Shown: piece after piece, positions 1 to 35,296 of the stretch
Position numbering within the stretch: position 1 is the stretch's first letter
Layout of the letters: every line of letters begins with the position of its first letter
From: a virus
Direction: 5' to 3' (one strand)
IMG/VR virus record: IMGVR_UViG_3300025009_000054
Location: 64,001 to 128,000 of that record
Length of the DNA stretch: 64,000 nucleotides
The notes under the pieces: generated by a model
The model's database searches: none
Told to the model about the DNA's origin: nothing
What the model saw: the letters and a program-made list of their open reading frames with translations, nothing else
Made by a program: the position numbers and the translations under genes

Positions 1-2151
1 ACCATCCATCTTGGAGAGCCCACCAACGCGACCAACTACATCCATAATCTGTTCCTGATAGACGAGTACTCCCCACGTATCATCAACGCTTGGCCACATT
101 AGAGGATGGACGTATGCTACACCTTCTCTAGATTCTCCATCACCAATTAGGATAGCTTCGGTACCATTTTTACGTCTAATGTACGACGGTCCACCAGTTT
201 CAAGCGGTCCAGGTCTAAATAGTGCAACAGCAGCAACTATATCACCAAACTCCGTTGGCCTCATACTCATGATAAACGATGTGAATCCTTGACCCTCTAA
301 CTGAAATACCCCACACGTCTTACCTTGTTGTATGAGCTCATATATCATTGGGTCATTCAGATCTATATCATTAGTGGTTGGCTGCCCTGGTATGTGTTTT
401 AGTGCATCTCGTATAATTGATAGATTCTTGAGTCCCAATATGTCGAGCTTTAGTAATCCAACAGCAGCAATAGCATCCATATCGAACTGCGTAATAATCT
501 GTTTCATTCCCTTACCATACTGGAGCGGAATCAGATTATAGAGCTCTTCCTCTGCTATAACAACACCACCTGCGTGGACGGATTCAGCACGTGGCATTCC
601 CTCAACGCGCAGAGCGTCAGTGTACAGCTTTTTAAAGTACGGGTCATTATCTACTGCGTTTCTGAATGGTACTTCATGCTGATATACAATTGGCAGACTT
701 AGTTTATGTAGGACTCCATCAATAATGATGTACGGATCTTCTGGGATAAGGTCAGTTAGTGATGCGACACCATGTACACCGCATGCCCTTGCCATATCCT
801 TAAGTGCCTGTCTTGGCCCCAGCGTGCTGAATGACTGAATCTGTACAACCTTATGGTCACTTCCACCATAAAGATCACCCATGTGCGCAATAATCTCACC
901 GCGTCTATCGGAATCGAAGTCTATATCGATATCGGCGGCAGTAGCATCACGACCCTCTCCCATAAATCTCTCATGCATTAGTCTGTGTTCGAGTGGGTCT
1001 AACATCGTGATACCTAGTAGCCACGATACTATCATTCCAGAAGCACTACCTCTTCCTGGACCATGTACAATACCATGTTCATCTGCGTAATCTACACAGT
1101 CAGCTACGATTAAAAAGATGTCTGATAATTCCTTATCATACATAATCTTGAGTTCTTCGTTAAGTCTACCACAATACTTATCATTGTACAAACCCAAAGC
1201 TTTTAATTTGTTCCAGCATTTATCTTCGAGTTCCCTATATGCACTATCGTACTTATCCTTATTAAACGGATATCTAGGAAGCATCTTCTGTGGTAGTATT
1301 GGTGTTACGTCTTCGCATCGCTTATATATGTCGAATGTGCCATCACTAATACCTGGGAAGATCGATAGCATCTCCTCTGGTGATTTAAGGTAGCAATCCT
1401 CACTATACATCATATCAGATTTCTTGGTAGAATCAGCCTCATCATCAGCACGTTTCTTACCAGAAGTATGTATCGACATCATTTGGCAATGCACTTCATG
1501 ATCTTCCTTTGTGAGGAAGTGAGCATCATTTGTTATAATGAACGGTATACCCTGAATATTGCCTTGTTCAATAAGGAATTCATTGAGTGGCTTCTGTGGT
1601 GCATACCCATTATCCATTAGCTCAAGATAGAACCTATCACCAAACAAGTCTCTATATTGATGTATGGCCGCTATTGCGTCATCTTCACGTCCAGCCGTAT
1701 ATAACTTTCCGACCTTACCAGCTATACATGCTGTGGTGCATATGAGTCCTTCACTGTGTGCCTCTAACATTGGCCAATCAATACGTGGTTTGTAATAGTG
1801 GCCAACTAGATATCCATGTGATGTTAGCCAGCATAGGTTTTTATATCCAATCTGATTCATCGCTATGAGTATGATATGGTTATTTGTACCTTCGGGATTC
1901 TTCTCTTTAATCCTGCAATCACTATCAGGATTCGATACATAGAGCTCTGCGCCTATAATCGGCTTAATTCCCTCAGCGACACATGCCTTGTGAAATTCGT
2001 AAACACCAGCCATGGATCCGTGATCAGAGATTCCTATCGCTGGCATCCCAAATTCCTTGGCTTTCTTAGCCATTTCCTTAGGTTTCATCATCCCGTCTAG
2101 TAAGCTATAATAGGAGTGGTTATGAAGTTGTATATGCCTATTTATTGCCAT
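1..2151 (-). CDS. dnaE: DNA polymerase III alpha subunit (family C), 3' end truncated by window edge
   Basis: Absent from the ORF track; translated by hand from ATG at 2151: MAINRHIQLHNHSYYSLLDG..ISDHG (PHP domain), GPGRGSASG, DIDIDFD, GLLKLDILGL, GVFQLEG, LFRPGP. Confidence 0.97.
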   Translation of the reverse strand, partial: MAINRHIQLHNHSYYSLLDGMMKPKEMAKKAKEFGMPAIGISDHGSMAGVYEFHKACVAEGIKPIIGAELYVSNPDSDCRIKEKNPEGTNNHIILIAMNQIGYKNLCWLTSHGYLVGHYYKPRIDWPMLEAHSEGLICTTACIAGKVGKLYTAGREDDAIAAIHQYRDLFGDRFYLELMDNGYAPQKPLNEFLIEQGNIQGIPFIITNDAHFLTKEDHEVHCQMMSIHTSGKKRADDEADSTKKSDMMYSEDCYLKSPEEMLSIFPGISDGTFDIYKRCEDVTPILPQKMLPRYPFNKDKYDSAYRELEDKCWNKLKALGLYNDKYCGRLNEELKIMYDKELSDIFLIVADCVDYADEHGIVHGPGRGSASGMIVSWLLGITMLDPLEHRLMHERFMGEGRDATAADIDIDFDSDRRGEIIAHMGDLYGGSDHKVVQIQSFSTLGPRQALKDMARACGVHGVASLTDLIPEDPYIIIDGVLHKLSLPIVYQHEVPFRNAVDNDPYFKKLYTDALRVEGMPRAESVHAGGVVIAEEELYNLIPLQYGKGMKQIITQFDMDAIAAVGLLKLDILGLKNLSIIRDALKHIPGQPTTNDIDLNDPMIYELIQQGKTCGVFQLEGQGFTSFIMSMRPTEFGDIVAAVALFRPGPLETGGPSYIRRKNGTEAILIGDGESREGVAYVHPLMWPSVDDTWGVLVYQEQIMDVVGRVGGLSKMDG

Positions 2152-2192
2152 TAAAGAACTCCTTCTCGTTACTACTCTTAAGTTCAAAACGA

Positions 2193-2642
2193 TTACGATC
2201 CGCTTGATAACTCACGCTCTATAGCTTCGAGTTCCAACTGTGCCCGTAAATCTGGGCTTATAATGTCTTCAAGGCGAGATTTCAGTATATCCAGCTTTTT
2301 CCTCTTTGAAGTAATCTGTACCTTTCCAATACGCATTTTTAGATCGTCAATCCAGTCATCTACGGTAAATCCGGACCACTTAAATGGTGGTGTATCTGTA
2401 CCGAGCCCTAATTTCTCTATAGCTATACAGTACGCTGTTTCACGTTCTATTAGGAAGGCAGCAACATTTATTAATGTAGATACATTAGATTCTACATGGA
2501 GATTGATAGCATCTGCCCTCCCCTCTATATATGAGAACGAACAATTAGTTTTCCATACTGGATGGTCAAGCTTGCTTATTTCAGCTTCCTGTCTCCGGAC
2601 CTCAGTAATAAGTTTTAGGGTTCTTTCATCAGTCTGCGCCAT
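2193..2642 (-). CDS. hypothetical phage protein
   Basis: 149-aa ORF overlapping the upstream gene, with SD; helical C-terminus. Confidence 0.75.
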   Translation of the reverse strand: MAQTDERTLKLITEVRRQEAEISKLDHPVWKTNCSFSYIEGRADAINLHVESNVSTLINVAAFLIERETAYCIAIEKLGLGTDTPPFKWSGFTVDDWIDDLKMRIGKVQITSKRKKLDILKSRLEDIISPDLRAQLELEAIERELSSGS

Positions 2643-4037: not shown

Positions 4038-4041
4038 AAGG

Positions 4042-4076
4042 TGTACCTCCACACCCTATATAAATGTGGAGGTACA
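4042..4076 (-). promoter_or_regulatory. 12-bp perfect hairpin occluding the SD of the 3744-4037 gene
   Basis: TGTACCTCCACA (4042-4053) / TGTGGAGGTACA (4065-4076); 11-nt loop contains TTTATA on the coding strand. Confidence 0.65.
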
Positions 4077-4907: not shown

Positions 4908-4921
4908 ATAATACTCCTTCC

Positions 4922-6216: not shown

Positions 6217-6225
6217 GCTATCCTC

Positions 6226-12345: not shown

Positions 12346-13239
12346 CTATTTCCCGCTTGATCCCCATCCATGACTACCGCGTTCGCTTTGATCTAGATCA
12401 TTCACTTGTACCATATGTACATCACACACTCTATGTATAATCAATTGTGCAATTCTTTCACCAGCCCTAATAGTCATTACTTCATTAGGTATCATGCTAC
12501 GTGCACATACAAAAAATTCACCTGAGAACCCTGCATCAATAACAGACTCTTGCACTAGTATGTTGCGTTTGGACGCACTCGACCTAGCTTTAATATTAAT
12601 CCAGTATCCGCTAGGGATCTGGATTTTTAATCCGGTTGGCACTACAGTAAATCCATCATAATTAAGTACTGTATCTTCGACAGCACAAATATCCCAGCCT
12701 GCATCATCTTTATATGTCTTGTTTGGGAGCCCATACTGCCTAGCTCTATCATCCATAACAACCTTGCATATTAAGCCGCTATCGTCATCATTATTGATAA
12801 TATTCCTAGATAGTATATCGATAGCTATACTAGTAAGTCGTGGGTCTATCGATGTAACGCCAAATTCGGCAAGTTTGGCGGTTGTTGTCATTCTCCATCC
12901 AGCAGCACTACTCTTAGTGGTACAATCCATGGGACCAGATAGATAGGCGAACTCTAAATCGCTCCAATCTTTACTATCTATATCTCTGAGTGATTTAATT
13001 ATATCAATGGCGTGGCCTAAACTATATACAATATGTGTCGCCTGAGACTCTGCTACTATCGACATTGGCCTACCAGTTTTCCATACAAGTATACGTGCTG
13101 GCACCCCAATTCTATGTGCATACTCAAGTTCTTGCGCCGTACCTATTGATAGATCATCTGACAGGAAGTTGAATATGCAATAATTCGACGCTTCCACATA
13201 TCCATTATTAATAGTGCATGCTAAACTTCCTCTGGACAT
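12346..13239 (-). CDS. dut: nucleoside 2-deoxyribosyltransferase/N-glycosidase-like domain (circularly permuted) fused to trimeric dUTPase
   Basis: C-terminal AGWDI, ARSS, VIDAGFSGE, RIAQL, RGSHGWGSSG; N-terminal SIGTAQELEYA precedes AYLSGPM..WR..G...IDP. Confidence 0.88.
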   Translation of the reverse strand: MSRGSLACTINNGYVEASNYCIFNFLSDDLSIGTAQELEYAHRIGVPARILVWKTGRPMSIVAESQATHIVYSLGHAIDIIKSLRDIDSKDWSDLEFAYLSGPMDCTTKSSAAGWRMTTTAKLAEFGVTSIDPRLTSIAIDILSRNIINNDDDSGLICKVVMDDRARQYGLPNKTYKDDAGWDICAVEDTVLNYDGFTVVPTGLKIQIPSGYWINIKARSSASKRNILVQESVIDAGFSGEFFVCARSMIPNEVMTIRAGERIAQLIIHRVCDVHMVQVNDLDQSERGSHGWGSSGK

Positions 13240-13714: not shown

Positions 13715-14338
13715 CTATACAGTAATATTATCAAACATAACTGGTATGAGATTCTTCGCATCTGCAAGTAATGGGATCATAAGCTCTTGCATCTGTGGAT
13801 GCGCGGTGAGTGGCGTTCTCATATGGAATATATGTCTCCACTCTCTCCAGTTGGCAGTTACAGCAATCTCAGTTTTCACACAGGTGGGTAGGCAATTCCT
13901 CGCGATCTGTGGCTTAAATCCTTTTACATTAACGTAGTATTCGTACTCTCTCTGGTCAGCATGCCTTCCTTCAAGCCACACATTAAATGCTTCATCATCA
14001 CCACGTATTTCCTCAGGGCAGATTACCATAATGCCTGAGCTCTTATAATTACAGTACCTGGTACTCTCCTGAGCAAATGCAGCAAGTCTATGTCTAACCA
14101 ACTCATGTGATATGCCACGATCACATATAAATTTAACAGTCATCATACTATGTTCAAACATGGCCTCATGCTTTTCGCTCATTCTAGCACGAAGGAATCC
14201 CTCATATGAATCATCTGTAATTTTCGCTTCTGACTTGTAGCATATGCGGATGATTCGCTCCATATCTTTAGCCATTTCAACCGCATCCATGTGTGAGTAT
14301 GGGAACATAATTTTGTAGCTAGGCTGTATTATTTCCAT
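13715..14338 (-). CDS. thyX: flavin-dependent thymidylate synthase
   Basis: HEAMFEH, RGISHELVRHR..FAQESTRYC, NWREWRH, AHPQM. Confidence 0.97.
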   Translation of the reverse strand: MEIIQPSYKIMFPYSHMDAVEMAKDMERIIRICYKSEAKITDDSYEGFLRARMSEKHEAMFEHSMMTVKFICDRGISHELVRHRLAAFAQESTRYCNYKSSGIMVICPEEIRGDDEAFNVWLEGRHADQREYEYYVNVKGFKPQIARNCLPTCVKTEIAVTANWREWRHIFHMRTPLTAHPQMQELMIPLLADAKNLIPVMFDNITV

Positions 14339-14385: not shown

Positions 14386-16644
14386 CTATCCGCAACGGGA
14401 CCATGAACATGCCGGATTAGAACACTTATAACATCCCTCACTATATTTTATCATCGACCCACAATCGGCACACAGCTCGACCTTGGGACCACCAAATAAA
14501 TCTAGCGTATGTCTAACGTTCTGATCCGTCGCACGTTGAATTGCTTTTCCAATAGCATCGGCACACGATAGAACGTGTGTATTCTCGTCAGCTACGCATC
14601 CTAAGCACCGTATTCCAAGAAGCTGTTCGAGGACCGTATCGACACTCAAACCTGCTCTGAGTGCATTACTGATAACACGCGACAGGCTTTCAGCCAAGGA
14701 ATGGCATCCGCTAGCCCTTCCCGTATTACACATGACCTCAAGCACACGCCCATCAGTATCCTTATTTACAGTAATATATATACTGCCACAGTTTCCAACC
14801 TTAAATACCGACGTGCTACCAGATAGAAGCTGTGGCCTAGTAGTAGATCTTATATCCTCCGGTGTATGGGTTTTCCCACCAGCAGACATTGGTTGATTCT
14901 CACGGCAGTTATTTCTATATACTGTCATTCCTTTACACCCAGTCTCATATGCCAACTTTATAGCACCAGCGACATCTTCAACTGTGGAGTTGTTATTCAT
15001 ATTAATGGTTTTGCTAATGGATAGATCTATATGCTCCTGAAACGCTGCTTGCATTTTGATATGATCAGACCAATGTATATCGTGCGCACATACAAATAGC
15101 CTCTTCAGGGACGACGGGAGTCCTGTAATATTTTGAATTGATCCATCATGTTTTTTTGCAATCTCACTAATTAAATCATTCGACCATATACCAGCACGTT
15201 TTGATTCATCGACAAACATGGGGTGAACTTCACTCATCTCAGTGCCATCAAGTACTGTCCTGGTATAAGCCACTGAGTACATCGGCTCTATACCGCCAGT
15301 GACACCTGCAATTATTGATAACGACCCAGTCGGTGCTACACACGTCCTAGTAGCATTACGGATAGCGTACTTACCATCGTATATACTGCCACTCCACGCT
15401 GGAAATGCACCACGTTCATTAGCCATATAAATAGATTCTTCGGTAGCAATATTTGAGATAGCCTGCATTACCATCTTACCAGTATCACGAGCTTCTTCGG
15501 AATCATATCTCAGTCCAAGTTTGAGTAGCATTTCTGCCCAGCCCATAACGCCTAACCCAATCTTGCGTGTGAGCAGCGTAGCATCTTTGATTTCTGGAAG
15601 TGGGTAACAATTGACATCTATTACATTGTCGAGGAATCTTACTGCAGTTCTAACAGTAGATTCCAATATATCCATGTCTATTTTTGGCATATCATCATTA
15701 GTGACCATTAAAGATAAGTTGATAGACCCCAAATTGCATGACTCGTTGGTTAACTGTGGCACTTCTGCACAGGGATTGCAGCCCTCTATCTCACCAAGAT
15801 GTGGAGTTGGATTATATCTATTAATATTACCCCTGAATAGTATTCCAGGCTCTCCAGTTGCATGCGCATTATTAACGAGTGCATCGAATAATTGAACGGC
15901 ACTAATTGTGGTTCTATTTCCAGTTGTAGGACACACAAGGTCATATTTACTATTGGTATTGACGGCATCCATAAACGCATCATCCACTAATACGCTTATA
16001 TTGAAATTTTTGAGTTTACTTAGATTACTCTTACACTTAATAAACTCAAAAATATCTGGATGGCCTATGGGCATGAGAGCCATATTGGCACCCATGCGCG
16101 CACTACCTTGTTGCACAGCATCCGTACAAGCATTGATAGCTTCTATAAACGATATTGGTCCACCGGCCTTACCATTTGTCGATGATACCAGAGCTCCCTT
16201 TGGCCTAATATGACCAAAATTAGCTCCAACCCCTCCACCCGACTTATGAATTAAGGCAAATTGCTTGATCGTATCAAATATACCTTCCATCGAATCTGGT
16301 AATGATAGCGTAAAACATGCCGCGAGTTGTCCATTATCTCGACCGGCATTGATTAGAGTAGGTGTGTTTGGAAGAAAATGCATATTACTCATTAGCGTGT
16401 AGAAGTCAATGGCCTGGCTTATCACATCTTCCATGGATGACCCATATTGCTTATCAGCCATAGCAATAGCAGCAGCTACACGTGCAAACATATCACGCGG
16501 ACTTTCTATGCAGTTACCAGCACTATCTTTACGTAGATATCTCTTAGTAAGTAGTGTAGTAGCATTGTCGCTCAACACAGGATCTAGATCTACCTGAGCG
16601 TGTATCTCAGCAATAATATCATAGGTGTTAAATTCGATAGGCAC
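14386..16644 (-). CDS. nrdJ: class II (B12-dependent) ribonucleotide reductase
   Basis: FLPNTPTLINAG, QLAACF, NPCAE, CNLGSINL, APTGSLS; C-terminal TSCPD-like domain (LSCADAI) and Zn ribbon. Confidence 0.96.
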   Translation of the reverse strand: MPIEFNTYDIIAEIHAQVDLDPVLSDNATTLLTKRYLRKDSAGNCIESPRDMFARVAAAIAMADKQYGSSMEDVISQAIDFYTLMSNMHFLPNTPTLINAGRDNGQLAACFTLSLPDSMEGIFDTIKQFALIHKSGGGVGANFGHIRPKGALVSSTNGKAGGPISFIEAINACTDAVQQGSARMGANMALMPIGHPDIFEFIKCKSNLSKLKNFNISVLVDDAFMDAVNTNSKYDLVCPTTGNRTTISAVQLFDALVNNAHATGEPGILFRGNINRYNPTPHLGEIEGCNPCAEVPQLTNESCNLGSINLSLMVTNDDMPKIDMDILESTVRTAVRFLDNVIDVNCYPLPEIKDATLLTRKIGLGVMGWAEMLLKLGLRYDSEEARDTGKMVMQAISNIATEESIYMANERGAFPAWSGSIYDGKYAIRNATRTCVAPTGSLSIIAGVTGGIEPMYSVAYTRTVLDGTEMSEVHPMFVDESKRAGIWSNDLISEIAKKHDGSIQNITGLPSSLKRLFVCAHDIHWSDHIKMQAAFQEHIDLSISKTINMNNNSTVEDVAGAIKLAYETGCKGMTVYRNNCRENQPMSAGGKTHTPEDIRSTTRPQLLSGSTSVFKVGNCGSIYITVNKDTDGRVLEVMCNTGRASGCHSLAESLSRVISNALRAGLSVDTVLEQLLGIRCLGCVADENTHVLSCADAIGKAIQRATDQNVRHTLDLFGGPKVELCADCGSMIKYSEGCYKCSNPACSWSRCG

Positions 16645-17902: not shown

Positions 17903-18748
17903 TTAGCCCTCCACACGCACTAACATCTTAATATCGGTAATACCCTTAACACCTTCTAAATAAGCAAACCCATCATTTATTGACATTAATCGATATCTAG
18001 TAGTACCATGCAACATACGAACTACATCTCCATCATGCAACTCTACACCATGCGCGTCATCATTTTTACCTGGTGTCACTGGCACGTTACTGATTATAGG
18101 AACGTTAGTACTCCTAAGCAGAGTTGATATACCATCTTCCTCAATGCGACCCCACAAACCGCGCAGTACCAGTATCGATATAATCGCATAGTTCGACATG
18201 TCGCCCATGGTTTCAATTACGCTCTCTCCACCATCATCGAGTTTGTTCTGAAGAATATTGCGCATGCGGCATGTCTTATCATGCATTCGGCTGTGAATGC
18301 CAGTAACACCAACGTCAGATAGGTTCTCATTACTGTATTTTCGACCACGCTCAACCATAATGGATAAGTTGCGATCACACATTTTCTTAACCTGCTGATC
18401 TACCTGCGCTGCATCCATATAGATTAGATTGTCCTCATCGAATAATCCTGACGATGCTACTAGCTGTCCAACAACTCCATATACCGCGATTCGCTTAAAT
18501 ATGTCTATGGCAGCGCAGCAAGCTTCACGACTAATCTCACTACCAGTATATACACACGGCTTTAGGTTGTCAATATCACCCATACCGACGAGCACTCCAG
18601 CGTCTAACCATAACATCTGACACGATGCCAGTATTCCATCTACCCCTATCCTGCTAACGACTGACATTGAACGTGGTGTATCGGTTAGCATGTTGATCGC
18701 AGCAGCCCCAATACTGTCTACTTCTGTACTAAGTATCGATATTTTCAC
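17903..18748 (-). CDS. DUF1599 / nucleotide-modification-associated all-alpha domain protein
   Basis: RGRKYS..N....G..GIHSRMHDK..R..N......ESVIETMGDMSNYAII; GTG start after GGAGG. Confidence 0.75.
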   Translation of the reverse strand: MKISILSTEVDSIGAAAINMLTDTPRSMSVVSRIGVDGILASCQMLWLDAGVLVGMGDIDNLKPCVYTGSEISREACCAAIDIFKRIAVYGVVGQLVASSGLFDEDNLIYMDAAQVDQQVKKMCDRNLSIMVERGRKYSNENLSDVGVTGIHSRMHDKTCRMRNILQNKLDDGGESVIETMGDMSNYAIISILVLRGLWGRIEEDGISTLLRSTNVPIISNVPVTPGKNDDAHGVELHDGDVVRMLHGTTRYRLMSINDGFAYLEGVKGITDIKMLVRVEG

Positions 18749-18749
18749 A

Positions 18750-21446
18750 TTACGCCTCCACACTCTCTTGACTACCAGATGGCATCCCACCACCTAGCGT
18801 CGGCTGACCATCGGATGGCTCAAACCACGAAGTCGTTTCGCCATCCCATACTGCATGGACGATACCTTCTCTGCCACCTCTATTCTTACTAATATTAATT
18901 ATATGTCTGCCATACTTAAATCCAATCTCATTTATGATCTTCTCAGGTTTCTTCTGTGGAATCATGAATGTATCGCAGTCAGCCCATATCTTCTTCGATC
19001 CACCAACATGCTCGGCACCTATCGGATTAAATTCTCTCTTTTGATCCATCATGCCAATAGCTGATGCCGATAACTGTGCGGCACACACAGCAGCTATATC
19101 TAAATTTCCTGCCATATTTTTAATACCGGTGGATACATCTCTATACTCTGCCCATAGTTCACCTGAGGAATGCGACTCGCTTCCGAGTAGCTGTATGTAA
19201 TCTATAAAGACGGCAGATATATCGTATTTCAGTTTATACAAATGGGTGATAGCTGAAACAGCCTGAATTGATGCACCGTACTTTGTTTCAATAAATATGG
19301 GCATTTGGCTTATGGCATATGCAGCATCTTTAACCATATCGAGTTCTAACTGAGTTAGATACCCGTACTGCATGGCGTTTATGGTCACACGCTGTCCAAA
19401 CATTATCCATATGAGCATTGAGTATAACCTAGTCATAACGTCACCATCTTCCATCTCCATGTTGACGAAGAGGACAGGTGCACCCTGTAATGCCATGACA
19501 AGTGCTATCTTTAGCATAAGCGCACTCTTGCCTTGTCCAGGCAATGCTCCTATGACGATATACTTCTGTTTCCTGATACCGCCAAGTGTAAGCGATAATG
19601 CTGGGAATTGTGGTCTAAGGTCAAATCCTGGTAACGTGCCTGGATTTGCCACCTGGTTTATGATGAACCTCGTAGTCCTATCGACCAGAGCAATCCTATT
19701 GTGTTCTCCATCACCATCAGATGACCCTCTAACAGCGATGGCAACTACGTCACCGCTTATCTTAGATACTATTTCATCAGATGATATCGACGCGTCAATA
19801 CACATCGACATTGTACCAGTCATTTTTTCATATAGGGTACGTCTCTTATACCTATCGATAATTATATCTAAGCACGACTGCCAATCCTCATACGACGCAC
19901 TAAATACAGCATCGACATTCGTTTGAGATACCAAATTGCCTTTACCAGACGCAACTATATTAGAGTGTACGACATGGGCAGTAGGTACTCCGGCCTTGGC
20001 ACGTTCTTCTACGATCGCGCTAAATATGAATTTATTTGAGAATACATAGAAGCAGTCCTCTGTCAGCGACGATACACACTGTGCATATATCTGCTCATTA
20101 CCAGCCATAGCCGATAATATTTTATTTTCGGACGTCGCATCAGATAATACTGACGTATCATATATTCCAGACGATACGCATGCAGTAATTGTTTGCTGAT
20201 CGATTCCTACGGCATCAGATATGCATTTACACGCTATTGCTTTGTTAAGTGGACTCAATGTATGGACTCTAGAGCGTACCTTGTTTATGAGCATATGTAC
20301 ATCAAGCACGTTGTCTACTACTGTATCAAGCATAGACTGTTCTATATAGTATTGAGCAAAATGCGTTGCATTGTTGAGCTTATCATCAATTGACGCAATA
20401 CCATGAGTATTTATGACGTCATCTGGGTCTAGTCCTGGTGGCAATGTTACGATATCTAATATCATGCCATCATCTATACTAAGCTGTGATACTAAATTAT
20501 ATAGACCTTTTCTGCCACCAGCATCACCATCCCACATTAGCGAAATTCTAGATGCGCCATATTGTTTAGCAGTCATAACCTGTTCTGGCGATAGGTTGAC
20601 GTTCATAACTCCAACTGTAGATAGCCTATTACATGAATGCATGCGCATCACATCGAAAAATCCCTCTACAGCAATGAGCCGACCACTCTCTCTTATATGC
20701 TTTCGAGCTCTATGCATACCATATAACGGTGATGCAATCGGGTATACAGGAGAATTCCTACTGGTACCAGCCCATTTATCCTTTGATGGCGTCATAGCTC
20801 TACCACGAAAGAATACTATATCACCCTCAGCATCATGTATCGGGAATATCAACCTCCCACCGAATAGATTATCGTTTGTGAGCTCTAACCTATCAATGGT
20901 AATATCATCAACACCAGCACTACGCATGGCTACGATAAGGTCATGGGCATGCTCCGTATATCCTAAATTGAAGTCGTCCTGTGTCTGAGACGGAATCTGC
21001 CTCACATCAGTAACATACTCAACTATCTTTTTATTCTGAAGGTACATCTGGTGCATTACGTCAGCGGCCATACCATTGATTCCGCACAAATAGTCATGCC
21101 ACTGTTCCTCTATGGTAGGCTCTCTAAGATAATCTTTGATATCTATATTAAAATCGACACTAAATTGTTCAACAGCTTCTATGAACGTCAATCCTAGATA
21201 TGCTTGAATAAATCGTATAACATCTTTTCCATGCTTATCGGAACAGCTACCGAAGCATTTCCATATTTGTTTACGATCGCTTACTACGAAACTAGGGTCA
21301 TTATCAGCGTGGAATGGACAACAGCACCTACTTACGGATCCTGCCTTCTCTAAGACTATATATCTACCAATTGCATCTGATAGTGGAACAGCATTTGATA
21401 TGAACTGGATTAGACCTTGTGGGTCACGAACTCTTAATTTTCCCAT
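18750..21446 (-). CDS. DnaG primase - DnaB helicase fusion
   Basis: CHC2 finger (CCPFHADNDPSF..WKCFGSC), TOPRIM (VEGFFD, WDGDAGG, DPDD), DnaB motifs (GALPGQGKS, NMEM, FIDYIQL, AAQLS, KNRGG). Confidence 0.95.
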   Translation of the reverse strand: MGKLRVRDPQGLIQFISNAVPLSDAIGRYIVLEKAGSVSRCCCPFHADNDPSFVVSDRKQIWKCFGSCSDKHGKDVIRFIQAYLGLTFIEAVEQFSVDFNIDIKDYLREPTIEEQWHDYLCGINGMAADVMHQMYLQNKKIVEYVTDVRQIPSQTQDDFNLGYTEHAHDLIVAMRSAGVDDITIDRLELTNDNLFGGRLIFPIHDAEGDIVFFRGRAMTPSKDKWAGTSRNSPVYPIASPLYGMHRARKHIRESGRLIAVEGFFDVMRMHSCNRLSTVGVMNVNLSPEQVMTAKQYGASRISLMWDGDAGGRKGLYNLVSQLSIDDGMILDIVTLPPGLDPDDVINTHGIASIDDKLNNATHFAQYYIEQSMLDTVVDNVLDVHMLINKVRSRVHTLSPLNKAIACKCISDAVGIDQQTITACVSSGIYDTSVLSDATSENKILSAMAGNEQIYAQCVSSLTEDCFYVFSNKFIFSAIVEERAKAGVPTAHVVHSNIVASGKGNLVSQTNVDAVFSASYEDWQSCLDIIIDRYKRRTLYEKMTGTMSMCIDASISSDEIVSKISGDVVAIAVRGSSDGDGEHNRIALVDRTTRFIINQVANPGTLPGFDLRPQFPALSLTLGGIRKQKYIVIGALPGQGKSALMLKIALVMALQGAPVLFVNMEMEDGDVMTRLYSMLIWIMFGQRVTINAMQYGYLTQLELDMVKDAAYAISQMPIFIETKYGASIQAVSAITHLYKLKYDISAVFIDYIQLLGSESHSSGELWAEYRDVSTGIKNMAGNLDIAAVCAAQLSASAIGMMDQKREFNPIGAEHVGGSKKIWADCDTFMIPQKKPEKIINEIGFKYGRHIINISKNRGGREGIVHAVWDGETTSWFEPSDGQPTLGGGMPSGSQESVEA

Positions 21447-21455: not shown

Positions 21456-22073
21456 CTACATATTTGTTAATGAGAACGCTTTTTGTATGTCACTCTTAAT
21501 AGCATCGCGCAGAAACTTGAACTGCTTATATTCAGCCATACGATGCAAATACGACTGATGGAACGTTGGTACTAGTATAGCTGATCCCCACTCAAACTTG
21601 ATCTGATTTGTGGTGCCACGTACGGCAGTCATACTCGATGGTCTTTTACCAACGACACTATGGTACGCAGACACACCAAGCGTCATTATAACTGTCGGTC
21701 TTATTATATCTAATTGCTGCGATAGGTAGGTAGAGCAGCTTACAGACTCCTCCTTATTTGGATCACAGTCAGTGTCTCCATCGTGGGGTCTACATAGTAC
21801 GGTATTGGTAATAAATACATGCTCATCATCTATACCTAGCTCCGTAAGTATCTCATTAAATATGTCACCACCAGGTCCAGCGAGTATATTACCACTAGTT
21901 ACTTCCTCGGCACCTGGACACAATCCTATAATTACAAGCTTACTGTGTATTGATCCACGTGGCATTACTGGTACTGGAGACAGTGCCCTAAGTGGGCACT
22001 CGTTACAGTCCTGCATTTGTCCTACTAGATTTAGAAATTTTACTGTGTCCGGTCTATAACCTTCCATTATCAC
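21456..22073 (-). CDS. uracil-DNA glycosylase family 4-like protein with non-canonical motif
   Basis: CxxCPL, GLCPG..E, ITNTVLCRP, Q..IIRP..IMTLG, PTFHQSY. Confidence 0.88.
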   Translation of the reverse strand: MIMEGYRPDTVKFLNLVGQMQDCNECPLRALSPVPVMPRGSIHSKLVIIGLCPGAEEVTSGNILAGPGGDIFNEILTELGIDDEHVFITNTVLCRPHDGDTDCDPNKEESVSCSTYLSQQLDIIRPTVIMTLGVSAYHSVVGKRPSSMTAVRGTTNQIKFEWGSAILVPTFHQSYLHRMAEYKQFKFLRDAIKSDIQKAFSLTNM

Positions 22074-25518: not shown

Positions 25519-25908
25519 CTATGTCAAGCTTGACTCTAAAGCATGCTTATCATCCTGAGCAGATGTAGAGCCAGCTCCCATACCACCCTTGTCTGGATCA
25601 CTAGCCCAATCACGCTTAAATACCTCTGTTGATACTTCGGTAATCGCGTCCTGCAAATCTATGCCCTCGGCACTACAATACCCAGCTAGAAATACTATAA
25701 CATCAGCAACAGCGTCTCTAGCCTTTGATAGATATGTCTCTCTTGTCATGCCACGTATACCCTGAACACTCTTTAGATGCGCGTGTGCTAATTCACCTAT
25801 TTCCTCTACGGCTCCAAGTAGACAGTGATACGGCACTTGCTCACCAAAATTCCTATCAGACCACTCCTTTTGATTTCTCTGTAATTCTCGAAATGTTAGC
25901 TCACTCAC
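25519..25908 (-). CDS. MazG-like NTP pyrophosphohydrolase
   Basis: GAVEEIGELAH...DAVADVIVFL (ExxE...DxxD). Confidence 0.85.
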   Translation of the reverse strand: MSELTFRELQRNQKEWSDRNFGEQVPYHCLLGAVEEIGELAHAHLKSVQGIRGMTRETYLSKARDAVADVIVFLAGYCSAEGIDLQDAITEVSTEVFKRDWASDPDKGGMGAGSTSAQDDKHALESSLT

Positions 25909-28841: not shown

Positions 28842-29200
28842 TTCTTAGAACCAGTCATTGATAGCTCTGGTTCGCGTAAACTACCGCGCCTCGACGTAAC
28901 ATCGTATAAAAACTTTATGGAGTGCATTACTTCTCTTAAGTAATCACGTTTTGTAATTTGATCTTTACTACCATGATCACGTACCGAATGATCAAGTCTA
29001 GACCACAAACCAACAACATATGAGTAATATGATGGTAACACCATAAACATTTTATCTACTTCATCACCAGGCACTACTGAGGGTACAGACATTCTATGAT
29101 ATGGTTCTATCGATTCAAATAGTTCCTCATAGGACACGCTCTCAACATTGTACACTGATATTTCTATTGACATATCTGTACCCTCCAAATCATACGCCAT
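28826..29200 (-). CDS. hypothetical helical protein next to the helicase
   Basis: ORF coupled to neighbours; true start probably MSIEIS. Confidence 0.6.
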   Translation of the reverse strand: MAYDLEGTDMSIEISVYNVESVSYEELFESIEPYHRMSVPSVVPGDEVDKMFMVLPSYYSYVVGLWSRLDHSVRDHGSKDQITKRDYLREVMHSIKFLYDVTSRRGSLREPELSMTGSKKWGNQ

Positions 29201-30002
29201 ATAAATCTAGATTTATAATCGCGTTTTTATATGTAGCCTCTACTAAGTCATTTCCTGTATAGTTTCTCCCCTCTTGTAACGAAGCTATACCCATACTAGC
29301 AGTACCACAAAATGGATCTATTATGGTCTGTCCAGGGTCTGTATATGTAAGAACTAACCTTCTACATATCTCAATTGGTAACTGGTTTAGGCCAAGACGA
29401 GGGCTCCCCTTCTTATGAAATGATCTAGATATGGTACTACATATATCGGAGATCAATCTACCACCAGGATTCCTCTTATCCTCTTTACCACCATAATCAG
29501 ATAGATACTTCTTACAATGTCTACATACTACATGGGGTTCACGTATGCGATGAAACGTCGACTCATATTCACTGAACCTATCATTCGGCATCCTACGCTT
29601 TCTAAGGACTAAGAACGCATAATGCCTAGGATATAGACCATACTTTTTGGGTCGAGCCCCACTAGGTGCATCCCAAGCTATCCAATGTGCGAACTCTATC
29701 CAATGATTTGTGCATATCTGCGCACCAGCCATCATAGTCTCATATGGCATGTGATGTAGTATGATCCATCCACCTGGCTTCACAGCAACAGCAGCATCTT
29801 CAACCCAACGATAGAGTTTTGATAAGTATATCCCATTATCTATACTGTCATTGACACTATCACCATACTGTACGTCTAAATTGAATGGTGGATCAAGAAA
29901 TACCATATCTGGCCTATTATTGCGACTAAGGATTGACTTTATAAAATCGTTATATTCCTTATTATGCATTTCATACGGCATTATTAGATATCCTTTAACC
30001 AT
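29190..30002 (-). CDS. beta-class amino DNA methyltransferase (M.BamHI-like)
   Basis: DPPFN, WIAWD, LYPRHY, CRHC...DYGG...NP.G, DPFCGTASMG. Confidence 0.88.
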   Translation of the reverse strand: MVKGYLIMPYEMHNKEYNDFIKSILSRNNRPDMVFLDPPFNLDVQYGDSVNDSIDNGIYLSKLYRWVEDAAVAVKPGGWIILHHMPYETMMAGAQICTNHWIEFAHWIAWDAPSGARPKKYGLYPRHYAFLVLRKRRMPNDRFSEYESTFHRIREPHVVCRHCKKYLSDYGGKEDKRNPGGRLISDICSTISRSFHKKGSPRLGLNQLPIEICRRLVLTYTDPGQTIIDPFCGTASMGIASLQEGRNYTGNDLVEATYKNAIINLDLYGV

Positions 30003-30547: not shown

Positions 30548-30558
30548 TCTGACACTCC

Positions 30559-31209: not shown

Positions 31210-31714
31210 CTAATAGTCCAGCCATTTTACACATCGTTACCCAATCGGACATTTGCATAACAACAAATCTATTAGTATCTCCCTTGATATGAAAACCCAT
31301 CCACGGAATCTTAGGCGGGCTACACTCGCCTGCATCTCTTATTATATCGTCTAAATCTTTTCTTGGTAACACAATATTCTTCTGCACTACACTATGTGGA
31401 GTAATATCTTTACACTCACCAAGTAATTTGTTACTAACAATATCACCTTTACCGAACTCTTTACTACTACCGGAGTATGGTACTCGATCAGAACCTGTAG
31501 CCTTAGCAAATGCTTTTTCATTTGCCTTACCACGTGCGCGGTTTCTACGGTTTCGCTTTATACGCTCAAATTTGTCAACACGTGCCTTTTCTAGTATATC
31601 GGCTTTCGCAGTATCTGTAAGCGTATCAAGCACTAACTTATATTTATCAAGAGCCTTCGTCTGTTCCGCTGGAGTTAGTATTGTGTTCTCCAGAGTCACC
31701 TTCTTTGATCTCAC
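31199..31714 (-). CDS. Holliday-junction resolvase-like PD-(D/E)XK nuclease
   Basis: RGKANE...RVPYSGS...KGD...GECK; follows recA. Confidence 0.75.
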   Translation of the reverse strand: MRSKKVTLENTILTPAEQTKALDKYKLVLDTLTDTAKADILEKARVDKFERIKRNRRNRARGKANEKAFAKATGSDRVPYSGSSKEFGKGDIVSNKLLGECKDITPHSVVQKNIVLPRKDLDDIIRDAGECSPPKIPWMGFHIKGDTNRFVVMQMSDWVTMCKMAGLLDGK

Positions 31715-32693
31715 TTGGCATACCAGCTTTCTGTCTTACAACGGCTATTAAATCCATAATATGCTGACAAAACACTGGATCTGATCTTAACGCAACATCT
31801 ATAGCCTTCTTACCATTCCACTTTTTGTCAGTGTTAGCAAGGTAAAACCACGACGACACTTGCGTTATAATATTAAGCGAGATTGCCTCTTCGATTAGAT
31901 TACCAATTATATCTATACCAGAATCAAATCTAAAGTCATACTCACCCTTGCCATACGGTGGAGCAACTGATGATTTCTCAACAATAACTCTAACTCTGTG
32001 ACCTACAACATCATCGCCCAATTTGATCTGTTCAAGTCTTTTTAGTTCTAGTCTAAGCGATGCCCAGAATTTGAGAGCCCTTCCACCGGCTGTATCTTCA
32101 TTTTTACCGAACATAACCATTGGCTTAGAACGCTTCTGGTTGATAAATACTACTATACACTTCTTTTCGGCAACCTTCGGACCAATCTTCCTTAGTGCCT
32201 CAGCCATAAGTTTCGAAGTTGGTGCGATGTGGGTATCACCAATATCACCCTTAGCTTCATCTTCTGTTACAAGAGCAGCTACACTATCTAGAACGATAAA
32301 ATCGAAAATATCCGCATCGATAGCATCTTCAAGTATCTGTAATGCCTCTTCACCAACCATCGGACGTGCATATACAAGTCGATCCGGATCCATTCCTAGC
32401 ATCAATGCGAATGCACCCCAGAATCTACGTTCCATATCTATCCACAGAACGTTACCACAAACATTTTTCTGTATAGACGCACCCCATACCATAGCTAAAG
32501 CTGATTTTCCGACAGCCTCATCTCCAAATATCTCTACAATAATGCCACGCGGTGCACCACCAAGCTTGATAGCTTTATCGAGTGCTGGTATTCCTGTGGA
32601 TATAACTTCTCCAGGTGGTGGGACCTCTGTACCAACTCTACCTGGGTGTTTTTTACTCTGGGATGTTATAAAATCAGTAAGGGGACCTGCCAT
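31647..32693 (-). CDS. recA: RecA recombinase
   Basis: ISTG..ALD..GG.PRG.IVEIFGDEAVGKS, LDSVAAL, FINQ, GGRALKF.AS.RL. Confidence 0.97.
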   Translation of the reverse strand: MAGPLTDFITSQSKKHPGRVGTEVPPPGEVISTGIPALDKAIKLGGAPRGIIVEIFGDEAVGKSALAMVWGASIQKNVCGNVLWIDMERRFWGAFALMLGMDPDRLVYARPMVGEEALQILEDAIDADIFDFIVLDSVAALVTEDEAKGDIGDTHIAPTSKLMAEALRKIGPKVAEKKCIVVFINQKRSKPMVMFGKNEDTAGGRALKFWASLRLELKRLEQIKLGDDVVGHRVRVIVEKSSVAPPYGKGEYDFRFDSGIDIIGNLIEEAISLNIITQVSSWFYLANTDKKWNGKKAIDVALRSDPVFCQHIMDLIAVVRQKAGMPSEIKEGDSGEHNTNSSGTDEGS

Positions 32694-32721
32694 GTTGGGG
32701 GATTACCTCCGATATTAATGG

Positions 32722-32755
32722 ATGTGGGGGTACCACATGCACCGGCACCCCACAT
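32722..32755 (-). terminator. GC-rich hairpin between the SSB gene and recA
   Basis: ATGTGGGG...CCCCACAT; no clear U-tract. Confidence 0.4.
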
Positions 32756-32774
32756 TCCCGCGTCTGACTAGTCG

Positions 32775-34001
32775 TTAAGCTACAATGCTAGTTAGCTTAG
32801 TATCAAGCAATCTTAGCTCTTCAACCGTAAGCATATTGATATCGGCTGTTCTTCCATTGCTAGCATCCTTGATGTAAGACGCCAGCTCTGCAAAATTACT
32901 GCCAGTATCAAGTTTACGAAGCTTATCAGCAACTGCAGTACCGATTACTACCCTCTCATCAACCGGTGCCTGAGGAGGATGAACGGTTGCTGTCGGTACA
33001 GACGTCATGTTGACAAGTGCCATATCAAACGCACTCTTTAGCAGGCCAGCAGGAAGACCTGTACTGAACTCTGTCGCGTACTGTCGGTCCATTGACACTA
33101 TATCCCCGACCGTCTTCCCAGGGTACTTTCCCGTTGGGCATACAATAGCTACCGCCTCATTCGGGTTTATCCTGATTTCTGATGGTCCAGGAGTGCCCAT
33201 ATCACCAACTGGTCCGGACTGACCAAACTGGCCGTTAGGCATCGCAGGTGGTGGTCCGTAGGACTGCATTGGCATCGGAGCAGGTGCCCCGAACTGCTGT
33301 CCTGGTTGTGGTGCACCGAACTGCTGTGGCTGTCCGTATGACTGCATCGGAGCCGGTGCACCGAACTGCTGTGGCTGTTGTGTTTGCATACCGAACTGCT
33401 GTGGGGGAGCAGCCATTCCACCCATATTACCAACTGGCATATTAAGCTGTTGGATTAGCATTTGAATCTGTTCCATGCTTTTAGCCTGGAGTTCATCTAC
33501 GGCATCAATATCAATGAGGTCTGCTTCATTGAACTGAATCGGAGCCTGATTAGCCATAGGAATGACAGTATACTGTCCACCTTTAGCCTGTGGCCTTGTG
33601 ATAATGAAATCCACACAGGACACATCTTTATTATACGCTGTGTAAATAGCACCAATCGGATTCCAAATCTGCGTACCACCAACAAGAACCTTATGCTCAG
33701 GTTTAGGTGTATCGAGGACTAGCACGTTACATGCATGTCTCATTGCAGAAGGAAATCTCTGTCTATTCACGCACATTGGGCAAAGACCCTGGCCAAGGCA
33801 CTTCTCGTAGCCTCTCCACTGTCCCCTACCATTTTCACCTTGTGGGTTATATTCATACAGCGAATGACCCCACCAGCTACACAGGTCACCAAACTTCGGA
33901 TGGCCTGGTACAAAGAGCAATCTCACTCTATGAGACTCTCCAGCTTTGAATTGCAGAAGCTTACCGCTCCCACCGACTCCGTTTACGTCATTAAAAGACA
34001 T
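32775..34001 (-). CDS. gp32-like single-stranded DNA-binding protein with Q/P/G-rich linker
   Basis: HRVRLL, C....CPMC, RHACNVL, DFIITR..YTV; QQFGAP repeats; PTGKYPGKT module; start MSFND after SD; next to recA. Confidence 0.7.
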   Translation of the reverse strand: MSFNDVNGVGGSGKLLQFKAGESHRVRLLFVPGHPKFGDLCSWWGHSLYEYNPQGENGRGQWRGYEKCLGQGLCPMCVNRQRFPSAMRHACNVLVLDTPKPEHKVLVGGTQIWNPIGAIYTAYNKDVSCVDFIITRPQAKGGQYTVIPMANQAPIQFNEADLIDIDAVDELQAKSMEQIQMLIQQLNMPVGNMGGMAAPPQQFGMQTQQPQQFGAPAPMQSYGQPQQFGAPQPGQQFGAPAPMPMQSYGPPPAMPNGQFGQSGPVGDMGTPGPSEIRINPNEAVAIVCPTGKYPGKTVGDIVSMDRQYATEFSTGLPAGLLKSAFDMALVNMTSVPTATVHPPQAPVDERVVIGTAVADKLRKLDTGSNFAELASYIKDASNGRTADINMLTVEELRLLDTKLTSIVA

Positions 34002-34055
34002 TCGTAATCTCCCTTCAGGAATTTGAATTTTGTCTGAACTATGTATAAACCCAGA

Positions 34056-34083
34056 GCCAACGAACATGCAAACCGACGTTGGC
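34056..34083 (-). terminator. hairpin after purZ
   Basis: GCCAACG...CGTTGGC. Confidence 0.3.
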
Positions 34084-34093
34084 CCCGTAGATA

Positions 34094-35296
34094 TCAGTAC
34101 TTGCTTTGATAGGCCGGTTCGAAGTCCCTCTTATATCCAGGCTTCGATGATGATTCAGGCGATAGTATGCCGGATTTGAATGCAAACTCTCTAAGTTTAC
34201 CTGGATGCATAGTGATTATATGTTCTGGGCGTGGACCCGTACTTAGCCACCCAATAGAATCAAATAAATCATATTCTGCAGCGAATTTGGCCACCCATTC
34301 TTTACTAACCTGGGACAGACCTTCCCAAGCATTTTTACCATAGTCAATCGCGGCGATATAATCTATGAACGTGACCATTATCGATCCTGGTCGATTAATA
34401 GCAAGGGCTTTTCTAAACAATTTAGGACTAATCTCACCAACTCTTCTAACTCTCTTCGTAACAGTCGTCATTTCAATAACAGGCTTAGACGATCCACTAC
34501 GAGTCTGAATTTCTTCCCACGTGAGTTCCTGAACATTCTCGTCTTCATACCCAAATGGTCCACTGTTGCCAGCAACCCTAATTGGATATGTTCTCATAAC
34601 ACCATATATACTACGTACGGACATTGGTGATAGTCCAGCTTCTGCAAGCCAGTTTGCTGCGTTTGTATCTCTGGACGTAGTTTTTGGATATAAACCATGG
34701 TACATCGATAAAGCCATTCCCTGAGTTCCTTCGAGCATAACGGGAAATCCATTGTTTACCATATTATTGAGTATCATGCATGTATCGCCGATGTAGGGTT
34801 TAAGATAACTCACATCTTTGGCTAAGGTCACATCACCCTGCCTTTTAATCCTATCAATGAGAGCCGCACCACACCCTTCACGTGTACTACCAATAGCTTC
34901 GAACAGATCTTTACTACCATCTTTTCCATGCTCAGCATCAATATGTTTCTGCTCAATCAGAATGGCATTTGGATCAATGACGAGTCTACCATCATCCCAT
35001 ACCTTTTCTTCCTTCAGCCAACCGATTTCCCGATCTAGTACGGTTGGAATAATCATAGCACCAGCACCAATTACGAGCTGTGCTTTTGGTGCCGCTATAG
35101 ACCCGCATGGAATGGTTTGAAAAGCAAGCTTCTTCTTTCCATCTTTACTATAGACATAATGGCCAGCATTCGGCGATCCTGTACGCACTAAAGCACCATT
35201 ATTATATTGCCCAGCAATATGTTCACACAATTTTCCTTTTGCTTCAGAACCAAATGCGAGTCCGACGACGATATCTACGCACCTATTAGTGATCAT
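34094..35296 (-). CDS. purZ: PurZ/PurZ0-type N6-succino-2-amino-dAMP synthetase (PurA paralog)
   Basis: FGSEAKGK (Ser in place of the PurA catalytic Asp of GDEGKG), PNAGH, EGTQG, YPKTTSRD, RTYPIRVAGNSGP, TTVTKRVRRVG, TFID. Confidence 0.85.
   Translation of the reverse strand: MITNRCVDIVVGLAFGSEAKGKLCEHIAGQYNNGALVRTGSPNAGHYVYSKDGKKKLAFQTIPCGSIAAPKAQLVIGAGAMIIPTVLDREIGWLKEEKVWDDGRLVIDPNAILIEQKHIDAEHGKDGSKDLFEAIGSTREGCGAALIDRIKRQGDVTLAKDVSYLKPYIGDTCMILNNMVNNGFPVMLEGTQGMALSMYHGLYPKTTSRDTNAANWLAEAGLSPMSVRSIYGVMRTYPIRVAGNSGPFGYEDENVQELTWEEIQTRSGSSKPVIEMTTVTKRVRRVGEISPKLFRKALAINRPGSIMVTFIDYIAAIDYGKNAWEGLSQVSKEWVAKFAAEYDLFDSIGWLSTGPRPEHIITMHPGKLREFAFKSGILSPESSSKPGYKRDFEPAYQSKY

Follow-up and report, generated by a model that had tools for sequence, protein, structure and literature searches.

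The nucleotide-metabolism genes of this locus raise the question of whether a large phage replaces the adenine of its DNA with 2-aminoadenine (Z), and copies such DNA with a bacterial-type replicase. The window, i.e., the whole stretch of 64,000 bases analysed, comprises bases 64001–128000 of a 142,704-bp IMG/VR record (G000) of an uncultured groundwater phage, and represents the module for replication and nucleotide metabolism in a genome of at least 143 kb (Table 1). Terminal repeats are absent from the record, and its CheckV completeness is 82%, so about a fifth of the phage genome may be unseen. A megablast search with 12 kb against the phage collection gave zero matches, and in the sequencing runs the region is represented by assembled contigs only. 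The first-pass annotation had named a PurA paralogue with Ser in place of Asp, a phage PurB, a MazG-like pyrophosphatase and DnaE as parts of a Z pathway. All four could be confirmed on the minus strand, with positions equal or close to those first assigned, the PurA paralogue as a PurZ-family protein by residues and tree, the PurB as a PurB-like lyase, and the MazG-like protein through a weak match.

Table 1. Features of the window, with positions counted from its first base.
Feature	Position	Strand	Evidence or remark
DnaE family-C polymerase, N-terminal 729 aa	1..2187, running off the left window edge	-	PHP, pol III alpha and finger domains
NDT (DmtZ-like, residues 1–160) and trimeric-type dUTPase (DutZ-like, residues 171–297) fusion	12346..13239	-	Pfam dUTPase E 3.9e-22, 78.9 bits; NDT profile
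ThyX thymidylate synthase	13715..14338	-	
Ribonucleotide reductase large chain with TSCPD domain	14386..16644	-	
PurB-like adenylosuccinate lyase (417 aa)	16647..17900	-	Lyase_1 E 1.1e-28, 101 bits
296-aa protein, DUF1599/'nucleotide modification associated domain 1'-like helical domain at residues ~133–220	17903..18793	-	Pfam 18 bits, below cut-off
Fused DnaG primase–DnaB helicase (898 aa)	18750..21446	-	
UDG-superfamily protein	21456..22073	-	
MazG-like all-alpha NTP pyrophosphatase (129 aa, EEIGE motif)	25519..25908	-	Weak: PRA-PH 21.4 bits against a cut-off of 21.3; PHROG 'MazG-like pyrophosphatase' E 2e-6
DNA methyltransferase (N6_N4_Mtase)	29190..30002	-	DPPF motif
RecA	31647..32693	-	
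430-aa protein with Gln/Pro-rich middle, between purZ and recA	32775..34067	-	
PurZ-family synthetase (400 aa)	34094..35296	-	Pfam Adenylsucc_synt E 8.9e-48; phrog_1211 '2-aminooxy adenylosuccinate synthetase' E 1.5e-67

The synthetase carries the motifs FGSEAKGK (residues 15–22), RTYPIRVAGNSGP (residues 235–247), TFIDY (residues 308–312) and STGP (residues 352–355), and its translation also contains YPIRVAGNSGP and TTVTKR. Within the P-loop GSEAKG, Ser17 occupies the position of the catalytic Asp of PurA (Asp13), and Ser is found there in all 120 of the 120 closest database relatives. In the alignment, Ser17, PIRV (for TRV of PurA) and GNSGP are shared with every known PurZ and PurZ0 protein and set the synthetase apart from Asp-type PurA; likewise, YPIRVAGNSGP and TTVTKRVRR align with all reference PurZ/PurZ0, where the PurA equivalents are TRVG-SGP and TTGR. 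In the window protein, Ile replaces the IMP-side Thr of PurA, just as it does in enzymes proven to be PurZ. The donor motif combines residues of two types, in that the Asp of TFIDY is of the GTP type, whereas the Phe and Tyr are those of the ATP-type PurZ motif NFxNY; TFID aligns with TKLD of PurA and TMLD/SFAD of PurZ0, with the GTP-type donor-site Asp kept. The best solved-structure match by sequence is the archaeal PurA of Pyrococcus horikoshii (PDB 2D7U and 5K7X, E 5e-45), which has the same short architecture, GTP-type Asp and STGP motif, but retains the catalytic Asp and TRV/TRVG-SGP in place of Ser, PIRV and GNSGP.

The first-pass annotation had proposed a tree of PurA, PurZ and PurZ0 as a check. 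In a quick LG+G4 tree of 65 sequences, the window protein lies inside the Ser/Gly-type clade, away from housekeeping PurA, with the split from bacterial and archaeal PurA at an SH-aLRT of 99. It belongs to a third, metagenome-only clade that stands apart from classical PurZ and, in the best tree, outside the PurZ0 clade (Wayne, Ghobes and Hiyaa). Constraining the window clade to group with PurZ0 lowers the lnL by 19.6 (AU p 0.21), a grouping that the test does not reject, and classical PurZ is slightly favoured as its sister group (AU p 0.59). The signature residues and the tree thus assign the synthetase to the PurZ family. The 'PurZ0 type', first assigned from TxxD, holds for the guanine-recognising Asp, but not for the ATP-type Phe and Tyr or for the separate clade.

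Could such an enzyme make something other than the Z precursor? Another succinylated or aminated purine nucleotide, partial substitution only, or a small-molecule role would be in keeping with a clade apart from both characterised groups and with the hybrid donor motif, as well as with the Cys-rich or other long inserts found in many clade members and missing in the window protein. However, all substrate-side signature residues match characterised PurZ/PurZ0, and the lyase and the dATP/dAMP-removal homologues described below fit a route to Z, so that a different product seems improbable to us.

The dSMP expected from a PurZ reaction would require a lyase. The PurB-like lyase of the window is 34% identical to the one annotated in phage Hiyaa and contains THGQ, while its loop, SSSMKHKSGKNP, departs from the SSxMPxKxN signature by a Pro-to-Lys change and two extra residues. 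Of 20 records searched, five encode a phage PurB, each of them from a PurZ-family phage, and the gene is annotated in the public records of Streptomyces phage Hiyaa and Flavobacterium phage MaF61; it is therefore not the new feature it was first taken to be. The MazG-like protein, for which no counterpart was found in relatives, has 26% identity to S-2L MazZ (pairwise E 6e-5) and is a candidate MazZ-like supplier of dGMP from dGTP. An NDK gene lies in the same phage genome outside the window, and a search for a guanylate kinase found none, so that the pathway is not self-contained as had been claimed. The atypical lyase loop, the MazG-like match at the Pfam threshold and the 82% completeness of the record count against a Z genome.

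DatZ and DpoZ had been noted as absent from the window, and this absence extends to the whole record. The dATP-exclusion step, which the first-pass annotation had counted as missing, was however overlooked: a predicted dATP-exclusion module is present, in the form of an NDT–dUTPase fusion homologous to DmtZ and DutZ. An NDT profile built from remote homologues, which also matches Pfam NDT and the NDT chains of the PDB, recovers the characterised Wayne DmtZ-DutZ (E 2e-12), an uncharacterised Hiyaa homologue (E 1e-14) and Ghobes gp53 (E 3e-8). Unlike the NDT domains of the PurZ0 actinophages, that of the window is circularly permuted, with profile positions 56–129 matching residues 6–82 and positions 2–61 matching residues 96–151, i.e., the canonical segment order of DmtZ is swapped. 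The triad N11/E37/Y99 and D105 correspond to N77/E103/Y6/D12 of Ghobes DmtZ, with spacings of 26 (N to E) and 6 (Y to D) in both proteins. All DmtZ catalytic residues (Tyr, Asn and Glu) and the adenine-reading Asp, as defined in PMC12884076, are thereby present. DmtZ-DutZ enzymes clear dATP in PurZ0 phages (Poubanne 2026, PMC12884076), and the NDT–dUTPase architecture is reported in 77 of 98 PurZ0 genomes (PMC12884076). When the first 168 residues of the fusion were used in a word-based search, only the protein itself was returned, and relatives were found by exhaustive HMMER search; an NDT gene directly adjoins Dut in the DnaE-bearing relatives G001, G002, G004 and G007. A single-sequence AlphaFold model of the fusion (pLDDT 31.8) was unusable.

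The kinship of the Dut domain bears on whether these genes merely supply purines and dNTPs for canonical DNA, with the PurA-like protein and PurB serving (d)AMP supply or salvage, Dut acting as an ordinary dUTPase that protects ThyX-made pools, and DnaE copying normal DNA. In a nearest-neighbour ranking of 1035 phage records that carry Dut, Arthrobacter, Microbacterium and Streptomyces (Hiyaa-type) phages, groups that carry PurZ0, account for 57 of the top 60, although these 57 represent few independent lineages, the Arthrobacter ones being many near-copies of one. The closest Duts among phages thus belong to PurZ0 phages; this, and the fusion of Dut to an NDT domain with DmtZ residues, argue against an ordinary dUTPase, as do the replaced catalytic Asp and the Ile at the IMP-side Thr against an ordinary PurA. 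On the other hand, Dut is adjacent to ThyX and only about 40% identical to DutZ, ribonucleotide reductase, ThyX, Dut and NDK form a common phage dNTP-supply set, and the closest solved structure to the synthetase is a PurA. In addition, Ser-type PurA homologues are widespread in cellular genomes, and one is the sole PurA homologue of a Saccharibacteria genome, so the Ser signature alone is no proof of a Z genome. The helper genes also vary among relatives: the complete relative G003 has PurZ and DnaE without Dut, NDT, PurB or a YfbR-like/HD_3 DatZ, and the set is thus not constant. Taken together, we consider a canonical genome unlikely.

Apart from DnaE, neither the phage record nor its nearest relatives have a recognisable polymerase, as first noted for the window; the open frame, first given as 1–2151, spans 1–2187. 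The full gene encodes 1053 residues with PHP (E 2.7e-50), pol III alpha (E 5.6e-67) and finger (E 7e-32) domains. The search that had been proposed beyond the window, for HD-domain DatZ, DUF550 and polA, found none of them in the 142,704-bp record, from which HD, YfbR-like/HD_3, DUF550, PolA and PolB are all absent. PurZ occurs with DnaE, and without PolA or PolB, in five of the five nearest large relatives (among them G003 and G004, each 100% complete, and G007, 92%); neither a PF00476 match that would indicate a PolA-type DpoZ (also searched for in G000) nor a YfbR-like/HD_3 DatZ was found in these five. A standard Z system, with DatZ, DUF550 or a PolA-type DpoZ encoded in the roughly 18% of the genome that the record lacks, would be compatible with its completeness and lack of terminal repeats. 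It is nevertheless very improbable, given that the recorded part contains the replication and nucleotide genes as a cluster and that G003, G004 and G007 have DnaE but lack PolA, PolB and a YfbR-like/HD_3 DatZ. GenBank MT835501, among the closest public matches to DnaE, has no PurA homologue. The searchable literature yielded no paper describing PurZ with DnaE, in line with the first-pass annotation, and this apparently unreported pairing of a PurZ-type gene set with a bacterial-type DnaE is a candidate Z system.

With these alternatives weighed, we think it probable, from gene content and homology, that the phage replaces adenine with Z in its DNA. The gene content, residues, tree position and recurrence in relatives are observations, and the chemistry of every step is drawn from homology. 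The PurZ-family synthetase would join dGMP and aspartate to dSMP, probably with GTP as the phosphate donor, the PurB-like lyase would release dZMP from dSMP, and host guanylate kinase and phage NDK would convert dZMP to dZTP. By analogy with DmtZ-DutZ of PurZ0 actinophages, the Dut domain would hydrolyse dATP to dAMP and dGTP to dGMP, the latter feeding PurZ, and the MazG-like protein may add to this dGMP supply. The NDT domain would destroy dAMP and may pass its deoxyribose phosphate to free Z base. DnaE and the DnaG-DnaB fusion would then polymerise the remaining purine pool, for which no selection for Z of their own is required; the PrimPol of S-2L reportedly does not itself select for Z.

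Among known systems, the PurZ0 actinophages Wayne (Arthrobacter), Ghobes (Gordonia) and Hiyaa (Streptomyces) share with the window the GSEAKG P-loop, YPIRVAGNSGP and the Asp of an NKxD-like donor motif, and their system is likewise without an HD-type DatZ. Wayne and Hiyaa also have NDT and dUTPase on one polypeptide, the window fusion retains the triad and adenine-reading Asp of Ghobes/Wayne-type DmtZ, and Hiyaa carries a PurB-like lyase as well. The window phage differs in a PurZ of only 31–37% identity, in using DnaE rather than the PolA-type DpoZ-1, in a genome two to three times larger and in its groundwater origin; a phmmer search with Wayne gp50 as sole query found no DUF5664 homologue. 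The classical cluster of phiVC8 (Vibrio), SH-Ab 15497 (Acinetobacter) and cyanophage S-2L combines PurZ, DatZ and MazZ/DUF550 with DpoZ or PrimPol. Its PurZ shares with the window protein the Ser for catalytic Asp, PIRV and the Phe and Tyr of NFxNY, whereas the window has GSEAKG rather than GSTGKG, TFID rather than NFxN, no DatZ, DUF550 or PolA, and DnaE as replicase. S-2L carries a PrimPol and shows that a Z genome can do without DpoZ, so genomes of this kind were already known. The cultured Flavobacterium phage MaF61 (PQ858689, 168 kb) is also large and has an annotated PurA-like gene (GSSGKG P-loop) in addition to its annotated adenylosuccinate lyase. However, its enzyme has the ATP-type motif NFVN and sits on a long branch with classical PurZ, and the phage has neither DnaE nor an NDT match.

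Two further genes have no detectable counterparts in the relatives or in Hiyaa. Two DUF1599-NDT fusions, P0127 and P0128, match the 296-residue protein through their N-terminal domains (phmmer, E 1e-10 to 1e-12), and in the place of the 430-residue gene the relatives carry an unrelated gene of similar size. Avoidance of GC-only palindromes was considered as a footprint of Z (6 observed against 40.6 expected in G000, with a similar bias in phiVC8), and was dropped as non-specific because unmodified lambda shows it (19 against 89) and G003 does not.

To our knowledge, all proven Z-genome phages are small (about 40–80 kb) and have a PolA-type DpoZ or PrimPol. We give roughly even chances to the wider proposal that a lineage of large environmental phages (about 100–180 kb) has fully Z-substituted genomes copied by a family-C DnaE replisome, in the present case with a permuted DmtZ-DutZ fusion removing dATP and with a lyase brought by the phage itself. 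If so, Z-DNA would not be tied to PolA-type DpoZ or PrimPol, i.e., the modification would not depend on the family of the polymerase, and it would scale to genomes three to four times larger than that of any proven Z phage. DnaE of such a lineage would be a candidate enzyme for making Z-DNA, and the PurZ0-style clearance of dATP and dAMP by Dut and NDT would reach further back, and occur more widely, than the actinophage group from which it was reported.

The window spans bases 64001-128000 of a single, linear IMG/VR virus record of 142,704 bp, with a CheckV completeness estimate of 82%, and identical DNA is present in groundwater metagenome runs, all from one study. Nearly all genes lie on the minus strand. 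The genes named in the first-pass annotation, i.e., the PurA homologue, the lyase, the MazG-like protein and DnaE, are all recovered by Pfam and PHROG scans, and further neighbours include a fused DnaG–DnaB, RNR, ThyX, a UDG-family protein and RecA.

Features of the window, with the corresponding genes of Flavobacterium phage MaF61 in the last row
Feature	Coordinates	Strand	Remarks
DnaE	past left window edge	-	full length 1053 aa; Pfam/PHROG
Four-gene run	4098-9313	-	between DnaE and nucleotide genes
HNH endonuclease genes	11366-12001 and 30559-31209		same module as UvsW/ResIII-type helicase
NDT-Dut fusion, 297 aa	12346-13239	-	dUTPase domain at 171-297
Lyase_1 protein (PurB-like)	16647-17900	-	Pfam/PHROG
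DUF1599-like protein, 296 aa	17903-18793	-	between DnaG-DnaB and PurB
PARP-like protein	24150-25421	-	WGR, regulatory and catalytic domains
Small PRA-PH/MazG-like protein	25519-25908	-	threshold barely reached (Pfam/PHROG)
UvsW/ResIII-type helicase	25905-28841	-	split by LAGLIDADG intein
DNA methyltransferase	29190-30002	-	DPPF motif
Adenylosuccinate-synthetase homologue, 400 aa	34094-35296	-	Pfam/PHROG
MaF61 synthetase and lyase genes	118051-119394 and 129735-131090		PQ858689

The translated synthetase contains the motifs GSEAKG, YPIRVAGNSGP, TTVTKR, TFIDY and STGP. It was aligned with characterised PurZ (phiVC8, S-2L, an Acinetobacter phage and PMBT28), with PurZ0 of the actinophages Wayne, Ghobes and Hiyaa, and with archaeal short PurA and bacterial PurA, and it carries all PurZ-side signatures of this alignment: replacement of the catalytic Asp by Ser, replacement of the Thr of TRV by Ile, and the GNSGP insertion. 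Like PurZ0, and unlike classical PurZ (GSTGKG), it has the P-loop GSEAKG. The donor-base motif is TKLD in PurA, T/S-x-x-D in PurZ0, NFxN in classical PurZ and TFID in the window protein. The T-x-x-D motif on which the PurZ0 assignment had been based is thus present, but the assignment itself holds only in part, since TFIDY also retains the Phe and Tyr equivalent to F295 and Y298 of phiVC8 PurZ, two residues that reportedly stack against the adenine of ATP (bioRxiv 10.1101/2025.10.22.683976). GTP seems the more likely phosphate donor, although sequence cannot decide the donor, and use of both donors is possible. One sentence in PMC12884076 gives ATP to PurZ0 and GTP to PurZ, in conflict with its own introduction and with the bioRxiv preprint summary; we take the sentence to be inverted, probably by a slip. 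The closest solved structure by sequence is an archaeal PurA.

In a 65-sequence tree, Asp-type PurA is split from the Ser/Gly-type proteins with SH-aLRT 99, and the window synthetase falls on the Ser side, not inside the named PurZ0 clade but within a 40-member, metagenome-only clade (support 98) distinct from both the named PurZ0 clade and the classical PurZ clade. AU tests reject neither PurZ0 (p 0.21) nor PurZ (p 0.59) as its sister group. Ser occupies this position in each of the 120 closest relatives in the database. Ser-type PurA homologues are also frequent in bacterial and archaeal genomes, so the Ser signature alone is no proof of a genome containing 2-aminoadenine (Z). We note that the sole PurA homologue of a Saccharibacteria genome (G023, L171/L175) is a Ser-type protein of 335 aa, and that in genomes of Microbacterium, Dyadobacter and Cenarchaeum (L174, L176 and L177) the Ser-type domain sits in a frame of 530–553 aa with an extra N-terminal region, while a normal PurA is encoded at another locus.

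The first-pass annotation reported no DatZ or DpoZ in the window, but a missing exclusion step does not follow, as the NDT-Dut fusion protein, a predicted module for dATP/dAMP removal, is homologous to DmtZ and DutZ. In the account of Poubanne et al. 2026 (PMC12884076), every one of the 98 PurZ0 genomes encodes a dATP- and dGTP-cleaving Dut, named DutZ; 85 of the 98 encode DmtZ, an enzyme of the NDT family that degrades dAMP and is able to form dZMP; and 77 encode the two fused in a single protein. When 1035 phage records are ranked by nearest match to the Dut domain alone, the top 60 include 57 from Arthrobacter, Microbacterium and Streptomyces (Hiyaa-type) phages, the groups that carry PurZ0; these 57 represent few independent lineages, at ~40% identity. 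The first 170 residues have no match in Pfam. An exhaustive HMMER search with this N-terminal part finds eight remote relatives, including two NDT-Dut fusions and two DUF1599-NDT fusions, three of the eight passing the Pfam NDT threshold. The NDT domains of these relatives, combined into a profile, match the Wayne fusion, which is characterised, at E 2e-12, the homologous but uncharacterised protein of Hiyaa at E 1e-14, and Ghobes gp53 at E 3e-8. In gp53, residues Y6, V11, D12, Q13, P57, N77 and E103 are the DmtZ residues given in PMC12884076.

Against the window protein, this profile aligns as two segments of swapped order (profile 56–129 to residues 6–82, and 2–61 to residues 96–151), which indicates that the NDT domain is circularly permuted. 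In contrast to all relatives found, the N-terminal third with YLxGPxD is placed after the C-terminal two thirds, and N11, E37, Y99 and D105 are kept with the same spacings as in Ghobes. An INN motif is present at each end of the domain, a pattern that fits, and hints at, an origin by tandem duplication and subsequent trimming. An assembly error is unlikely, because five contigs encode this protein in identical form. In four related phage records (G001, G002, G004 and G007) the NDT gene is unpermuted and adjoins the Dut gene, so the NDT/Dut pair is a conserved module of the phage lineage.

The lyase, which has an atypical signature loop, shares 34% identity with a protein of Streptomyces phage Hiyaa annotated as ‘PurB-like adenylosuccinate lyase’; Hiyaa combines this lyase with PurZ0, an NDT-Dut fusion and a PolA of its own. 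Among 20 records searched, all of PurZ-family phages, five contain a Lyase_1 gene. The cultured Flavobacterium phage MaF61 (PQ858689, 168 kb) likewise has an annotated synthetase, which belongs to the PurZ clade with GSSGKG, NFVN and a large insert, and an annotated adenylosuccinate lyase; the MaF61 paper is silent on both genes. Given the annotations in Hiyaa and MaF61, a phage-borne PurB is not the novelty it was taken for, and PurB is still called a host function in the Z-phage literature searched. Describing the pathway as self-contained also overstates the case, since no guanylate kinase was found in the 142,704 bp and the NDK gene of the record falls beyond the window. The 296-aa product next to the lyase has a candidate DUF1599-like domain (‘nucleotide modification associated domain 1’), homologous to the one that P0127 and P0128, both metagenomic proteins, carry fused to NDT, a fusion that connects it with this nucleotide pathway.

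Elsewhere in the window, the four-gene run encodes a double glycosyltransferase of 693 aa, a pair of SAM methyltransferases and a protein with weak similarity to deoxyhypusine synthase, and may serve further modification of DNA or the virion. DNA methyltransferases with a DPPF motif are usually of the N6-adenine type, and a PARP-like protein is unusual for a phage.

No PolA, PolB, HD, YfbR-like/HD_3 or DUF550 protein was found in the 82% complete record, nor was a DnaQ-type exonuclease or a beta clamp. Because the record is incomplete, 18 IMG/VR records with a PurZ-family gene (about 53–312 kb) were checked: six have DnaE without PolA, including all five of the nearest large relatives of the window synthetase, seven have PolA without DnaE, and five have neither. 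Completeness is 100% for G003 (144,798 bp, with terminal repeats) and for G004, and 92% for G007. The complete 53-kb genome G018 encodes DnaE, a YfbR-like DatZ, Dut and PurB. The helper genes differ among relatives: in G003, which has PurZ and DnaE, no Dut, NDT, PurB or YfbR-like/HD_3 DatZ was found. The presence of PurZ with DnaE in complete relatives makes the pairing recurrent and real rather than an artefact of contig truncation, and no paper on the two together was found in the literature searched.

S-2L carries a PrimPol and has a Z genome without DpoZ, so a non-selective polymerase on a cleaned nucleotide pool is a sufficient mechanism; in the window phage, a non-selective DnaE would copy such a pool. 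For the S-2L and PMBT28 clusters, Z has been measured in plasmid DNA after co-expression in E. coli. Avoidance of GC-only palindromes looked promising as a footprint of Z and was discarded when the negative control, unmodified lambda, failed. In sum, the gene observations of the first-pass annotation stand and its interpretation survives in part, without the novelty of PurB and the missing dATP exclusion. On sequence evidence, we favour with moderate confidence, as the most likely reading, a Z-DNA phage that combines PurZ0-style control of the nucleotide pool with a DnaE replisome. Being both large and cultured, MaF61 could serve to test for Z-DNA in phages of this size class.
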